A stretch of 40,134 nucleotides of DNA from a virus. Positions 18,964-38,302 of the stretch are shown piece by piece; the stretch's first letter is position 1, and each line of letters begins with the position of its first letter. The position numbers and the translations under genes are program-made. The DNA lies in the UHGV virus genome UHGV-0210680. One strand, written 5' to 3'. The notes below the pieces were generated by a model. That model was not told the origin of the DNA and made no database searches. It was given only the letters and a program-made list of their open reading frames with translations.

Positions 18964-20112
18964 TTATCTATCAAGCCAGTCCGCCCACCATTGCATCATT
19001 TCTCTGCGTTTATCGAGATACTGAGCATGGTTGTAAATTCCACGCACAGAACCGCCGTTGGCATGTGCCAGTTGCACTTCAATAGCATCAGCAGGCCATT
19101 CGTGCTCGTTCATAATCGTGCTGAATTCATGCCTGAATCCGTGACCGCTTTCCAGACCTTCATAGCCGATTTGTTTGATCACAAGCAGTACCGCGTTCTC
19201 GCAGATTGGCTTCTTCTTATCGTTGCGCCCGGCAAAAACAAACTCTGATACTGGTTTAGTGATGGAGCTTAGCGTAGTGAGAAGTTCAACTACCTGGTCC
19301 GACATCGGAACCACATGAATCTTGCGTCCCTTCATCACACTGGCGTCGATGGTGATAATCCTGTTTTCAAAATCGACGTTCTTCCATTGCATGGAACGAA
19401 GCTCTTTTGTTCTTAGTGCTGTGTAGCGTAAAACTTTGGTCGCAATGAGAGATACGATACTTCCTGAAAATGTTGCAAGTGCTTTGTTGAATGCCGGGAT
19501 CTGGTCGGCAGGTAAAAACGGGAAGTTCTTCTTGCGGTATCCTTTCATGGCGTCTGCAAGGTCAGGTGCCGGGTTATATTTAGCCCTTCCGGTGACAATA
19601 GCGTAACGAAAAACCTCGCCGCATCTTCTGCGGGCTTTGTTGGCTCGCTCCATTGCACCGCGATCTTCAAATCTGCGGATTACTTCCAGCAGTTGCATCG
19701 GCTCAATATCATGAATCTCAAGACCGCCGATGATGGGTAAAATGTCGTCATCAAACATTTTGGCAAGTTCAGTTGCATAGCCTACTGACCAGACTTGCTT
19801 CTTGTGCTCGTACCATTCCTTGTAAATCGCACTAAATGAATTGTTGTTAGACGAAGCCTTTTTCGCCTTTACCGGATCGATGCCAACCGAGATGTCTTTC
19901 CTCGCAGTCCATGCCTTATCCCTTGCTTCCTGCAAAGTCATAAGCGGATATTTTCCGACGGTCAGGATTTTCTCCTTACCGTCAATCTTGTAGCGAAGCT
20001 GCCATACCTTTTTCCCGGATACAGGAACATAAAGGTACAGGCCATTACCATCGAGAAGGCGGTATGGTTTTTCTTTCGGCTTTGCTGCTTCAATCTGCTT
20101 AACGGTGAGCAT
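18964..20112 (-). CDS. int: tyrosine integrase (P4-like family)
   Basis: N-terminus from the ATG at 20112 (MLTVKQIEAAKPKEKPYRLLDGNGLYLYVPVSGKKVWQLRY) matches the P4-type integrase arm-binding domain; the C-terminus has an HGFRH box and a catalytic-Tyr region (GIYNHAQY). The ORF track begins at an upstream GTG (20148). Confidence 0.85.
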   Translation of the reverse strand: MLTVKQIEAAKPKEKPYRLLDGNGLYLYVPVSGKKVWQLRYKIDGKEKILTVGKYPLMTLQEARDKAWTARKDISVGIDPVKAKKASSNNNSFSAIYKEWYEHKKQVWSVGYATELAKMFDDDILPIIGGLEIHDIEPMQLLEVIRRFEDRGAMERANKARRRCGEVFRYAIVTGRAKYNPAPDLADAMKGYRKKNFPFLPADQIPAFNKALATFSGSIVSLIATKVLRYTALRTKELRSMQWKNVDFENRIITIDASVMKGRKIHVVPMSDQVVELLTTLSSITKPVSEFVFAGRNDKKKPICENAVLLVIKQIGYEGLESGHGFRHEFSTIMNEHEWPADAIEVQLAHANGGSVRGIYNHAQYLDKRREMMQWWADWLDR

Positions 20113-20361
20113 GGGTAAAAATCCGGTGGGTAAAATTATTTTATCCACTTTTTACCCGTCATGGAGTGCGGCTGTCAACGATCTGACGCGAACCATGACG
20201 AACCGTGAATATACGGAAGGCTTGATATTCAGGGGATTTTGCGGACTGGTACGGATGGGAGCGAACTGATAAATGGTGTCCCCTGCAGACATCTACTTGA
20301 GGCAGCAGGGGATTGATTAGAATGGTATTTTTTAGATGTGAGAAATATTTTACCCGCTAAT

Positions 20362-21030: not shown

Positions 21031-21087
21031 TTCTTGTCTCCATAAAACAAAACCCGCCGTAGCGAGTTCAGATAAAAGAAATCCGCA

Positions 21088-21888
21088 TTAAGCGGCGTCG
21101 GTGAATTCAAATAAAAAACCGGCTTGCGCCGGCTCTCTCATCTTTCTGTCTACCCATGCTGATATCGATGGCGGGTGCACCTTTTCAATAGCAGCGCGAA
21201 GTACAGCTGTACGTGCCAGTTTGTCGGTAATCTCAGGAAATCGCTTCTCTGTCTTCGGTACGTTAACAGCAACATTAGTAGAATCCGCACTGGCGAACGG
21301 ATACATACCAAGAACTCTCACGTCGAGCATTCGAAGACCATGAATTTTCACTTTCAAATTACGATTGATATAAAGCTCAGTGAAAACTTCATCCATTCTC
21401 TGTTCCCACCATTTAGAGCGTATGTGCCTGTGTGGGCCGCAGCATCCAATCGCCACCCATTCAAATTTGCCAGAAAGGCGTAAAAGACGTTCAATTGATT
21501 CGTCGGTATGCCAGACAGGAACCGCTTTTGATTTTAGCCAATCAGGAACCAACTCAATCTGCTCGTCGTTTTCTGCCTCTGTCCCTTCGATAACGTCAGG
21601 TATAAGAAACCATTCAATTCTGCTGAACCACTTCCCAACAAAGTCGTAGAATTTTGCTCGTCTCTTACTCCAGTCTACCGGGGTGCCTTTCTTTAATGCT
21701 TTCATCCAGTCGCTAAAAGCACCGTTATCAAGGCGTATATCACAAGGGAACATGGCAATCTTTTTCATCTGCTCTGGTCTGGCAAATGAAACAAAAGCCC
21801 CACCATCACGGTAAAGGGCTTTAATCAGCATATCTGTAGGGGCATGCTCATCCCCCCATATTGGGCTGCCGTGAAAGTGGATGGTCAT
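21088..21888 (-). CDS. hypothetical protein (largest ORF of the early-accessory region)
   Basis: 266-aa ORF with no family recognised by eye; contains a conserved-looking His/Cys segment (AIGCCGPHRH). Confidence 0.5.
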   Translation of the reverse strand: MTIHFHGSPIWGDEHAPTDMLIKALYRDGGAFVSFARPEQMKKIAMFPCDIRLDNGAFSDWMKALKKGTPVDWSKRRAKFYDFVGKWFSRIEWFLIPDVIEGTEAENDEQIELVPDWLKSKAVPVWHTDESIERLLRLSGKFEWVAIGCCGPHRHIRSKWWEQRMDEVFTELYINRNLKVKIHGLRMLDVRVLGMYPFASADSTNVAVNVPKTEKRFPEITDKLARTAVLRAAIEKVHPPSISAWVDRKMREPAQAGFLFEFTDAA

Positions 21889-22016
21889 ATTATCCCCATA
21901 TAAAAGAAATCCCCGCGAGTGCGAGGATTGTTATTGTCTTTTCTTCGTGCATTTGTCGCACTTTCGGCACCATCCAGATAGGCACATCCGTCCGCAATTA
22001 ACACATATAGGCCACA

Positions 22017-22298
22017 TCATTTTTCCTCTTTTGGTTTATGAATCTGAATGGTCATGCCGCTTTGAGTGGTGACTACAATGACAGAACCTGGCTGAAGACT
22101 GTTAAGATTGAATGCTTCGTAAAACGAATCCAATGCCAGTGCTTTTTTATTCTTTCGGTTCCACCAACGCCATCCCTTGCTACAGGCTACACTGACAATC
22201 CACTGTCCACTCCTGTAAGCCATATAAAACCAGATGAGCAAAACCTGAAGGAATGCTATCCAGTCAATGATCGTATATTTCGCGAAGGAGTCCATCAC
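22017..22298 (-). CDS. hypothetical small membrane protein
   Basis: 93-aa ORF with a hydrophobic N-terminal segment (IIDWIAFLQVLLIWFYMAY); start overlaps the upstream gene's stop. Confidence 0.4.
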   Translation of the reverse strand: MMDSFAKYTIIDWIAFLQVLLIWFYMAYRSGQWIVSVACSKGWRWWNRKNKKALALDSFYEAFNLNSLQPGSVIVVTTQSGMTIQIHKPKEEK

Positions 22299-22591
22299 TT
22301 CACCTCCTGCGGAGTAGCCTTTACAAGCACTGGTGTAAATCCATCTTCATTAAGGTTATGAATATAGACTTCTGTTCTCCTGCGCTCTTCAACGTTTAAT
22401 ATGGTTTCTGGATCATAAACCCATACTTTCATTCGACTATTCCATGAAGAAATCGCTTCAGATTTAGTTCGTTTTTCTGGTCCTTGGGCACCACATGTGC
22501 ATGACACATAGCGCATTTTCCCTCTGATACTGAATGAGTATCCGATGTTAAGCACAGTGGAACCACAGAATGGGCAGCGATAGAGATTCAT
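22295..22591 (-). CDS. Lar-family restriction alleviation protein (zinc ribbon)
   Basis: N-terminus MNLYRCPFCG...(22 aa)...CTCGAQGP....TKSEAISSWNSR has the Lar/RalR-family signature of two Cys pairs plus the EAI..WN.R motif; C-terminal ~40 aa extension. Confidence 0.6.
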   Translation of the reverse strand: MNLYRCPFCGSTVLNIGYSFSIRGKMRYVSCTCGAQGPEKRTKSEAISSWNSRMKVWVYDPETILNVEERRRTEVYIHNLNEDGFTPVLVKATPQEVK

Positions 22592-35357: not shown

Positions 35358-35536
35358 GACGACAGCGACGAAATATCACCGACATCATCTGCGAAAACTG
35401 CAAATACCTTCCAACGAAACGCTCAAGAAATAAACGCAAGCCAATCCCAAAAGAATCTGACGTAAAAACCTTCAATTACACGGCTCACCTGTGGGATATC
35501 CGGTGGCTTAGAGAACGTGCGAGGAAAACAAGGTGA
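35354..35536 (+). CDS. ninD: NinD-like small zinc-finger protein
   Basis: 60 aa from the ATG at 35354 ([30 protein letters not shown]...); start overlaps the ninB stop; lambda nin-region position. Confidence 0.7.
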
Positions 35537-35702
35537 TTGACCAAAATCGAAGTTACGAACAAGGAAGTGTCGAGCGAGCTTTAACGTGCGCTAATTGCGG
35601 TCAGAAGCTGCATGTGCTGGAAGTTCACGTGTGTGAGCACTGCTGCGCAGAACTGATGAGCGATCCGAATAGCTCAATGTACGAGGAAGAAGACGATGAA
35701 TG
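35532..35702 (+). CDS. ninE: NinE-like small protein
   Basis: 56-aa ORF from a GTG at 35532, Cys-rich ([20 protein letters not shown]) with an acidic tail; coupled to its neighbours by overlaps; assigned by position in the nin region. Confidence 0.5.
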
Positions 35703-36418
35703 AGTTAATAAATGGCAATGCCATCAAAATGACAAGCATTGAAATCGCTGAGTTGGTGGGTAAGCGTCATGACAATGTGAAACGTACCATCGAAACGCTG
35801 GCTAAAAATGGTGTTATCCGGCTTCCTCAAATTGAGGATTGTGGAAGAATCAATGGGTTAGGCTTAAATCAAAGTTTTTGTGTGTATGTATTCGAAGGCG
35901 AACAAGGAAAGCGAGACAGTATTGTCGTTGTAGCCCAGTTGTCGCCGGAATTCACCGCTCGCCTTGTTGACCGTTGGCGAGAGCTTGAAGAATCTGCGGT
36001 TAATATCCCAAAAACACTACCGGAAGCGTTGCGCCTTGCTGCTGATCTTGCTGAGCAGAAAATTCAACTGGAAAACCAGCTCGCAATTGCCGCACCTAAA
36101 GTTGAGTTTGCCGATCGCGTTGGCGAGGCCAGCGGAATTTTGATTGGAAACTTTGCAAAGGTTGTCGGTATTGGTCCGAACAAACTGTTTGCGTGGATGC
36201 GTGATCACAAAATCCTTATTGCTTCAGGTTCCCGGCGAAATGTGCCAATGCAGGAATATATGGATCGCGGCTATTTCACCGTAAAAGAAACAGCGGTCAA
36301 CACAAATCACGGAATACAGATATCGTTTACCACAAAAATCACCGGGCGTGGTCAACAGTGGCTGACCAGAAAGCTTCTCGATAACGGAGTGCTGAAAGTA
36401 ACAGGGGAGGCTGCTTAA
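35696..36418 (+). CDS. Rha-family regulatory protein / KilA-C (antirepressor-like) domain protein
   Basis: 240-aa ORF; N-terminus ([33 protein letters not shown]) resembles the Rha phage regulatory domain; C-terminal half resembles ANT/KilA-C antirepressor domains. Confidence 0.6.
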   Translation: MNELINGNAIKMTSIEIAELVGKRHDNVKRTIETLAKNGVIRLPQIEDCGRINGLGLNQSFCVYVFEGEQGKRDSIVVVAQLSPEFTARLVDRWRELEESAVNIPKTLPEALRLAADLAEQKIQLENQLAIAAPKVEFADRVGEASGILIGNFAKVVGIGPNKLFAWMRDHKILIASGSRRNVPMQEYMDRGYFTVKETAVNTNHGIQISFTTKITGRGQQWLTRKLLDNGVLKVTGEAA

Positions 36419-38146: not shown

Positions 38147-38221
38147 GGGTCAGTCGTATAAAGGTCATTACGGAAGGCTGTTAACCTTCTTATCGTGGTT
38201 CGAGTCCACGCTGTCCCGCCA
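38147..38221 (+). tRNA. tRNA-Asn (anticodon GTT), phage-encoded
   Basis: 75 nt folded by hand: 7-bp acceptor stem with one U-U mismatch, anticodon stem GAAGG/CCTTC with loop CTGTTAA (U33, GTT, A37), T-arm CGTGG-TTCGAGT-CCACG, discriminator G and encoded CCA. The anticodon loop and T-loop match E. coli tRNA-Asn; the D-stem is only 3 bp. Confidence 0.6.
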
Positions 38222-38226
38222 AATAT

Positions 38227-38302
38227 GCTGGTTTAGCTCCAATGGTAGAGCAGTCGCCTTGTAAGCGAATGGGTAGCGGTTCAAGTCCGTTAACCAGCAC
38301 CA
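38227..38302 (+). tRNA. tRNA-Thr (anticodon TGT), phage-encoded
   Basis: 76 nt folded by hand: perfect 7-bp acceptor stem GCTGGTT/AACCAGC, D-arm GCTC-CAATGGTA-GAGC, anticodon loop CTTGTAA (TGT), T-arm AGCGG-TTCAAGT-CCGTT, discriminator A and encoded CCA. Confidence 0.75.

Follow-up and report, generated by a model that had tools for sequence, protein, structure and literature searches.

The window analysed here is the whole 40,134-nucleotide (nt) stretch of virus genome UHGV-0210680, a P22/HK-type lambdoid phage genome, and the subject of this report is a cysteine-rich mini-gene on the minus strand of its early-left accessory region. Genes on that strand follow one another in the order 185-amino-acid (aa) open reading frame (ORF), 159-aa ORF, Lar-like 98-aa gene, DUF4752 93-aa gene, mini-ORF, hairpin, 266-aa gene, 114-aa gene, TorI/AlpA-like excisionase gene and 394-aa ORF, the last (20148..18964, minus strand) in the slot where related records annotate an integrase; the Lar-like gene stands two genes upstream of the mini-gene (Table 1). 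A sequence-only reading of the window had drawn attention to an ATG-initiated ORF at 21931..22020 on the minus strand, of 29 codons plus a TAA stop, translated as MMWPICVNCGRMCLSGWCRKCDKCTKKRQ. Position and translation agree with the window sequence, and the ORF lies, as that reading had it, between the 266-aa ORF and a small upstream gene, which is the DUF4752 gene with its hydrophobic N-terminal segment. The reported overlap with the upstream stop is also there, the ATGATG at the start of the ORF holding the DUF4752 TGA, which the first ATG overlaps. The count of eight cysteines was wrong: the peptide has six, at positions 6, 9, 13, 18, 21 and 24, and the sixth of these is not conserved.

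Table 1. Features at and around the mini-gene, listed in the direction of transcription (window coordinates; nt, nucleotides; aa, amino acids; CDS, coding sequence)
Feature	Position	Strand	Basis or remark
Lar-family restriction-alleviation homolog, 98 aa, with its own CxxC…CxC zinc-ribbon-like N-terminus	22295..22591	-	PF14354 E=6.3e-9; phrog_599
DUF4752 protein gene, 93 aa, hydrophobic N-terminal segment	22017..22298	-	Pfam PF15944 E=2.5e-36, phrog_667; stands before the mini-gene in the lambdoid subgroup alone
Shine–Dalgarno core GAGG, within the last codons of the DUF4752 gene	22025..22028	-	sequence reading
First ATG, the start chosen by the sequence-only reading and the HK106 annotation; yields 29 aa	22018..22020	-	lambdoid-subgroup-specific; probably not the main start
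TGA at the end of the DUF4752 gene; overlaps each of the two ATGs (ATGATG), a layout of the translational-coupling kind	22017..22019	-	sequence reading
Conserved microprotein CDS from the second ATG (22017..22015)	21931..22017	-	MWPICVNCGRMCLSGWCRKCDKCTKKRQ, 28 codons + TAA (21933..21931)
Terminator-like hairpin T1 (AATCCTCGCACTCGCGGGGATT; hairpin 21929..21908) with T-rich tail, 2 nt past the stop codon	21898..21929	-	sequence
266-aa gene, phrog_887 'queuine tRNA-ribosyltransferase'	21088..21888	-	PHROG match (E=1.4e-102)
Second terminator-like hairpin T2	21069..21050	-	sequence

Read in six frames, the window has 636 ORFs that reach 20 aa, and 5 of them have six or more cysteines within a 29-aa span, while Markov shuffling yields a mean of 2.05 (100 shuffles). 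Because cysteine richness is thus near the chance level, the sequence of the window alone establishes no feature at this position; it is the comparative data that do so. Five cysteine-rich short ORFs where about two are expected would be consistent with the mini-ORF being a chance frame in DNA that is conserved as a terminator, a regulatory element or the 3' untranslated region of DUF4752. The lack of a call in the records inspected that were annotated by the Prokaryotic Genome Annotation Pipeline (PGAP) would fit this explanation, and so would the fact that the lambdoid copies are 95–100% identical in DNA, which makes conservation of the ORF among them uninformative when taken alone.

Homologs were gathered from phage records, IMG/VR, species-representative genomes and metagenomes. 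A tblastn search of 50,697 phage records returned near-identical lambdoid copies together with unannotated homologs of 64–76% identity in unrelated phages, namely Deseoctovirus C1, Skatevirus KFS-SE2, KFSST1, ST1UNAM, ZCEC08, Swiduovirus CF-SP1 and the Stephanstirmvirinae phage Tr1, a 154-kb myovirus of Citrobacter. Over the diverged homologs as a whole, including a Kluyvera prophage and viral and metagenome contigs, identity is 62–83%. The set comprises 31 distinct peptides of 24–29 aa and, in addition, two variants that read through to lengths of 35 and 38 aa. Common to all 31 peptides is the motif M-W-P-I-C-x2-C-G-R-x-C-x3-W-C-x-[KR]-C-D-[KR], in which the residues M, W, P, I, C, C, G, R, C, W, C, C and D are invariant, five cysteines among them; the sixth cysteine (C24) is limited to the E. 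coli lambdoid subgroup. When a DNA pattern for the cysteine core was used that did not include MWPI, MWPI was still the exact N-terminus of the peptides for 43 of 44 metagenome matches and for all viral ones, and none of the matches to this pattern had an N-terminal extension or a domain fusion. The sequence-only reading had named conservation of the frame and of its cysteine pattern in related prophages as the check on its proposal. That conservation is present, with five of the six cysteines invariant, and it reaches far past related prophages.

The carriers are lambdoid prophages, virulent siphoviruses, the 154-kb myovirus and the Kluyvera prophage, and their hosts are all Enterobacteriaceae (Escherichia, Salmonella, Citrobacter and Kluyvera). 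The whole ORF is borne by 182 of 5,426 complete E. coli genomes; plasmids are essentially without it. Scanning the GTDB species representatives yielded the one Kluyvera prophage copy and one Hyphomicrobiales stretch, which diverges after 8 residues and was judged spurious. Salmonella phage Vi II-E1 (L009, ~1480-1590) holds a decayed remnant, ...FRHCFRMRLTSWCKKCDKSPK, whose start and first cysteine are gone; the upstream operon of the related siphoviruses is missing from this phage, and the terminator is kept.

The pattern of substitution among the homologs points to purifying selection on the encoded protein, and does so for this frame alone. The pooled ratio of non-synonymous to synonymous divergence (pN/pS) is 0.21 in the ORF frame, compared with 1.44 and 1.37 in the other two frames, both of which have stop codons in diverged homologs. 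Between subgroups pS is 0.8–1.2, which is near saturation, and pN is 0.11–0.25. Residues C9, G10, R11 and C13 are invariant though they lay outside the first search pattern, and they are so despite synonymous codon changes (TGC/TGT; GGA/GGG/GGT/GGC; CGG/CGT/CGC/CGA/AGA). In virulent siphoviruses, the ~90 nt that separate a gene from a terminator would be empty were it not for the ORF, which fills them. A frame that is kept across near-saturated synonymous sites, while the other frames bear stops and a pN/pS of ~1.4, is hard to square with a chance ORF, as are flanking DNA that is unrelated between contexts and a Shine–Dalgarno (SD) sequence with stop–start coupling nearly everywhere; on these comparisons the chance reading is effectively refuted. 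The mini-ORF is instead, as far as sequence comparison can tell, very probably a real gene under purifying selection. The remark of the sequence-only reading that such genes are easily missed by length cut-offs is borne out in that a genuine mini-gene, with its low pN/pS and broad conservation, tends to escape them.

The position of the start follows from the same comparison. The first ATG is missing from all non-lambdoid homologs and is replaced by ATT in one lambdoid copy (L054), while MWPIC is the N-terminus of all 31 distinct homologs, matching the second ATG of the window. Since the diverged homologs all begin at the equivalent of the second ATG, the conserved product is the 28-mer MWPIC...KKRQ. 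The GAGG core stands 4 nt from the first ATG and 7 nt from the second. Across 72 distinct sequence contexts, an SD-like core was found 3–12 nt before the MWPIC ATG in 68, and in 71 the upstream gene, read in another frame, has its stop at -12..+5 nt relative to the ATG, mostly as TGATG. With an SD sequence and a stop–start overlap or abutment in nearly all contexts, the mini-gene has the translation initiation signals of a bona fide coding gene.

The ORF had been described as unannotated, and for the E. coli records inspected this is correct: the PGAP chromosome rows contain no call for the mini-ORF, and under the match they give just 'DUF4752 family protein'. It is not correct for phage HK106, which carries the ORF as CDS HK106_030 / F863_gp30 (AFH20718.1, YP_007151700.1), a 'hypothetical protein' whose sole difference is K26Q, and the ORF is apparently annotated in phage mEp213 too. 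HK106_030 is the same gene in the same place (DUF4752, mini-ORF, 266-aa gene), 29 aa long; it differs from the present description in its first-ATG start and in being a bare hypothetical call, with no family, conservation analysis or function attached. Three third-party annotation records of metagenome-assembled genomes (DAF65670.1 and others) label an identical 29-mer DUF1244. This label was rejected, there being no DUF1244 match at E up to 10 in any of 16 members of the family. In Escherichia phage Dewey (PQ850600; L094 1524-1625), the deposited CDS is an overlapping 34-codon TTG ORF in another frame, the window equivalent of which is 21890-21997 (minus strand); because the frame annotated in Dewey has stops in diverged homologs and a pN/pS of ~1.4, it is probably a mis-call.

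Protein collections miss the family as well. The microprotein is absent from the 24–28-aa entries of a collection of 15 billion proteins, and an exhaustive HMMER search of 1.84 billion representatives with a 30-aa query (the ORF plus one in-frame upstream codon) found no true relative. The sole match in that search, to the 157-aa tandem-repeat protein P0007 (SGFCQECDRCT, four times), was rejected as a homolog because its score stems from the repetition. One database cluster, nominally 'at 90% identity', puts the 29-aa peptide together with TolC-like outer-membrane proteins of 473–480 aa. As these proteins are without any similarity to the peptide, the cluster is a database artefact; it also conceals the peptide from the representative library. 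A literature search found the peptide sequence and DUF4752 in no paper, the literature on small zinc proteins of the exo-xis region contains nothing on the mini-gene, and a 2024 review of phage small proteins mentions neither zinc nor cysteine. The microprotein family is so far undescribed.

The mini-gene always lies tight behind another gene in early or accessory regions, often as the last gene before a terminator, and the gene in front of it varies with the carrier. In lambdoid E. coli phages the upstream gene is DUF4752; in virulent siphoviruses it encodes a phrog_7798 protein of 180–216 aa, as annotated or called; in temperate phages of ~45–50 kb and in the Kluyvera prophage it encodes a TraR/DksA-type zinc finger (PF01258, phrog_54); and in Citrobacter phage Tr1 it encodes a phrog_2510 protein. 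Two further arrangements are found in L087, with a phrog_12750 protein upstream and a MazG-like gene downstream, and in L116, with an upstream 215-aa protein that shares motifs with the 159-aa ORF of the window when the two are compared by eye, unaligned. The presence of at least six unrelated upstream genes indicates that the mini-gene is an independent accessory cassette, functionally untied to DUF4752 or to the 266-aa gene. An obligatory tie to DUF4752 was rejected on two grounds: an ASCH gene is often found instead of the mini-gene, and elsewhere the mini-gene stands behind five other genes. In ST104, SCU-109, BL21 and O157, DUF4752 is followed by the ASCH-domain gene, which replaces the mini-gene. 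This 94-aa ASCH-domain gene (L092, E. coli SCU-109; L093, phage ST104, 1495-1779) is an alternative cassette in the slot between DUF4752 and the terminator. The same 31-nt terminator (window 21905-21935) stands 3' of either cassette, and ~560 further complete E. coli genomes, including BL21 and O157:H7, match just the terminator part.

On its other side the mini-gene of the window is followed by T1 and the 266-aa gene, whose product has no Pfam assignment at E<=1. In most relatives T1 and T2 are directly adjacent; here the 266-aa gene is inserted between them, as a segment of ~830 nt, an arrangement that the window shares with HK106 and only three complete E. coli genomes. As an insertion of such limited occurrence, the 266-aa gene has no more than an incidental link with the mini-gene; the possibility that the peptide is a detached zinc module of this TGT/DpdA-like gene was rejected because the two rarely co-occur and a terminator stands on either side of the insertion. 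The 266-aa protein may be a DpdA-like 7-deazaguanine DNA-modification enzyme; no preQ0 genes were seen nearby. The statement that the mini-ORF and the 266-aa gene are in the same operon has to be qualified in view of the terminator-like hairpin that begins 2 nt past the mini-ORF stop. Farther away in the window, the cysteine-density scan also picked out another small cysteine-rich ORF, of 56 aa, in the nin-like region (35533-35703, plus strand), which is probably a real gene, and two adjacent tRNA genes lie in the late region at 38147-38299 on the plus strand (Rfam RF00005, 55 and 61 bits).

Terminators bear on a further explanation, in which it is translation itself, and not its product, that counts, the ORF serving as a Cys/Trp-rich leader that attenuates the downstream terminator or as a coupling or spacer device for the upstream gene. 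The codon content would suit such a role, with 5–6 Cys and 2–3 Trp codons among 24–29, and so would the layout, a terminator hairpin standing 2 nt past the stop in the window and close behind the gene in several other subgroups; strong terminators are found 3' of the homologs in virulent siphoviruses and in L116, L133 and L137. In the trp, his and leu attenuator leaders, constraint falls on the regulatory codons only. In the mini-gene, the non-regulatory residues P, I, G, R, D and K are as invariant as Cys, with synonymous variation in their codons. No alternative antiterminator structure was seen, the minimum free energy fold being without a helix that competes with the terminator (z=-1.2), and neither Rfam at gathering thresholds nor RNA folding revealed an RNA element at the mini-ORF. 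Furthermore, a terminator is not present in all members: in the TraR subgroup a NinX-like gene begins 1–4 nt past the mini-gene stop, and no terminator follows. We regard a role as leader or spacer as very improbable, and turn to the peptide itself.

Two CxxC knuckles, C6-x2-C9 and C18-x2-C21 in window numbering, are invariant in all 31 peptides and could provide the four ligands that a zinc knuckle calls for. The peptides are basic, with a pI (isoelectric point) of 8.8–9.7 and a net charge of about +2.5 to +6.5. Searches of curated families gave no assignment. Pfam returned no family at E<=1 for the window peptide, and over 16 members its best models were C1-like_CT (E=0.037, seven members) and Fer4_4 (E=3.7), far below the cut-offs; NCBIfam returned no family, and the best PHROGs matches had E=0.32 and 0.53. 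The best, non-significant match (E=0.47) in a profile search of Protein Data Bank (PDB) sequences was to the Cys4 zinc site of RNA polymerase III RPC2, VCDKCGLMGYSGWCTTC (PDB 5fj8_B residues 1094-1110). The C-x2-C-x8-C-x2-C spacing of C6/C9/C18/C21 is shared with this zinc site, down to an identical C-x2-C-G-x7-C-x2-C, and the stretch 'SGWC' is common to the two. The RPC2 site differs in being a loop in a 1,149-residue protein, and the non-significant resemblance would be one of structural analogy, for the way in which zinc might be gripped by four of the cysteines, rather than homology. In Foldseek, most of the top matches were zinc-binding modules, at non-significant scores; the first of them was again the RPC2 site (7ast_M, E=3).

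Small cysteine-knuckle proteins are known from other systems. One-domain zinc-finger micro-proteins with C(P)XCG motifs have been described in Haloferax volcanii (PMC6562870, PMC10716476, PMC11241148). Like these, the phage peptide is tiny, stands alone and has CxxC knuckles, the first of which, C-V/K-N/H-C-G, fits C(P)XCG; the Haloferax proteins, however, are archaeal, chromosomal and up to ~70 aa long, whereas the phage peptide has 24–29 aa and five invariant cysteines, and there is no sequence homology between the two. Nor does the phage peptide belong among the C(P)XCG proteins by its motifs, since CxxCG is found in its first knuckle alone, the second being invariably C-x-[KR]-C-D in place of CxCG. 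Closer to the mini-gene, Ea8.5 is a small zinc-finger protein of the lambdoid early-left (exo-xis / ea) region. The TraR-like lambda Orf73 is also a small zinc-finger protein of the exo-xis region (PMC9239242). Orf73, Lar (PF14354) and Ea8.5 resemble the peptide in being small Cys4 proteins whose genes lie in this early, non-essential region, but they are two to four times longer, have other cysteine spacings and show no sequence similarity to it, and their targets (the RNA polymerase secondary channel, restriction alleviation) are not transferable to the peptide. In kind, the peptide is like the small cysteine-knuckle accessory proteins of phages, yet it fits no curated family.

The sequence-only reading counted such mini zinc ribbons among the common phage regulators; put more specifically, the peptide would be a nucleic-acid-binding regulator, for which retroviral zinc knuckles offer a comparison. 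The retroviral CCHC knuckle is spaced C-x2-C-x4-H-x4-C, and as an 18-residue metal knuckle with aromatic and basic residues it is comparable to the C-x2-C-x3-C-x4-C of the peptide. A basic, Trp-containing cysteine knuckle might bind DNA or single-stranded RNA in the manner of retroviral CCHC and tune phage or host expression. The charge and pI given above would suit this function, as would the invariant Trp, Arg and Lys/Arg positions, the resemblance in spacing and the early regulatory or accessory location, with a TraR-like transcription factor gene adjoining in one subgroup. The peptide, however, has Cys in place of His and a loop one residue shorter than zf-CCHC (PF00098), and it gave no hidden Markov model match to that family, or to DNA- or RNA-binding families of Pfam, at E up to 10. 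A conserved target site is not apparent, the carriers, temperate and virulent, have unrelated regulatory circuits, and 24 residues are very small for sequence-specific recognition. A regulator of this kind is, in our judgement, unlikely.

Less likely again is a redox-active, iron-sulfur (Fe-S)-binding or disulfide-knotted peptide, acting as an iron-sulfur or thiol-redox effector or, if disulfide-rich, becoming active after release by lysis. Five cysteines are invariant, one beyond the need of a zinc site, and there is weak similarity to the 4Fe-4S model Fer4_4 (E=3.7-5.7) and to the cyclotide kalata B7 (WPICK...CGETC, E=6.9). Both matches are far from significant, the peptide has no signal peptide, maturation or radical-SAM genes were not seen nearby in the contexts examined, and the CxxCG...CxxC spacing is typical of zinc knuckles.

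The best overall explanation, which we consider probable with some reservation, is that the locus holds a genuine translated gene for a basic 28-residue microprotein, carried as a self-contained cassette and folded around a metal. Of its parts, the metal-binding fold is marginally more probable than not. Several points weigh against this explanation. The homolog set was ascertained by protein-level patterns, so that conservation at pattern positions is inflated. Six single-nucleotide variants of the core were seen among the near-identical lambdoid copies, and five of them are non-synonymous, including C21Y, C21R and G10R. These rare singletons offer no hint of present-day constraint on the copies resident in prophages, where selection may be weak, although the power of this comparison is low. 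A search of the literature found no record of the product from ribosome profiling (Ribo-seq) or proteomics. The term 'zinc ribbon' used by the sequence-only reading is apt in so far as the 8-residue separation of the two CxxC knuckles would suit a short zinc knuckle, but family, structure and fold searches gave no significant similarity to zinc-finger families or structures. The fifth invariant cysteine means that an Fe-S cluster, a disulfide or an intermolecular site is possible. CxxC is no guarantee of zinc: several C(P)XCG micro-proteins are reported not to bind it (PMC11241148). Finally, single-sequence AlphaFold2 gave a predicted local distance difference test (pLDDT) score of 80.7 for the cysteine-rich 30-mer and of 81.8 for a 35-mer of the rejected overlapping frame; because the rejected frame scores alike, pLDDT is no evidence of foldedness or coding for such short peptides, and the model was given no weight.

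The singletons that break invariant residues were seen in IMG/VR lambdoid contigs (L070, L071, L072, L078 and L073), which between them have C21Y, C21R, G10R, P4L and a C-terminus that diverges after residue 18. Their occurrence as single cases suggests occasional decay in resident prophages, or sequencing errors.

If the locus does encode a metal-folded microprotein, the following course of events may be envisaged. Ribosomes ending the upstream gene, or binding the SD sequence in its last codons, would start at the MWPIC ATG, as the anatomy of the junction suggests. The cassette itself recombines between phages of Enterobacteriaceae. The peptide would fold round one metal ion, most likely Zn(II), by means of four of its five invariant cysteines. 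The ligands might be provided by the knuckles C-x2-C-G and C-x2-C-D, 8 residues apart, or else by the C-x2-C-x3-C-x4-C knuckle, and the invariant MWPI N-terminus, the Trp and the basic residues could form a binding surface. Because the gene works behind six unrelated partners in temperate and virulent phages, its target is likelier to be a host component conserved across Enterobacteriaceae, or a nucleic acid, than a particular phage protein. More speculatively, and with a low probability in our estimate, the peptide could belong to a new class of minimal (24-residue) metal-dependent effectors, docking by its invariant N-terminus and five-cysteine core onto a conserved Enterobacteriaceae machine; the ribosome and RNA polymerase would be examples, as would a defence or stress protein of wide occurrence. 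Docking on a conserved machine would explain why a 21-residue core is nearly unchanged across temperate lambdoids, virulent siphoviruses and a 154-kb myovirus.

Microproteins of fewer than 30 aa are too short for the length thresholds that gene callers and protein databases apply. The mini-gene described here is an unusually clean case, in which strong protein-level constraint is seen on a tiny gene exchanged between very different phage types. To specialists, a clean microprotein family and a recurring annotation gap will come as no surprise. The 24–28-mer peptides, for example MWPICKHCGRMCWSEWCIKCDKRG, are accessible by chemical synthesis, which makes them a cheap experimental target. Should there be no host target, the annotations in many phage and prophage records would still be corrected. 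Should a host target exist, the peptide would add one more to the short list of minimal phage effectors, and if it does dock onto a conserved host machine, it would be among the smallest conserved folded effectors of phages.

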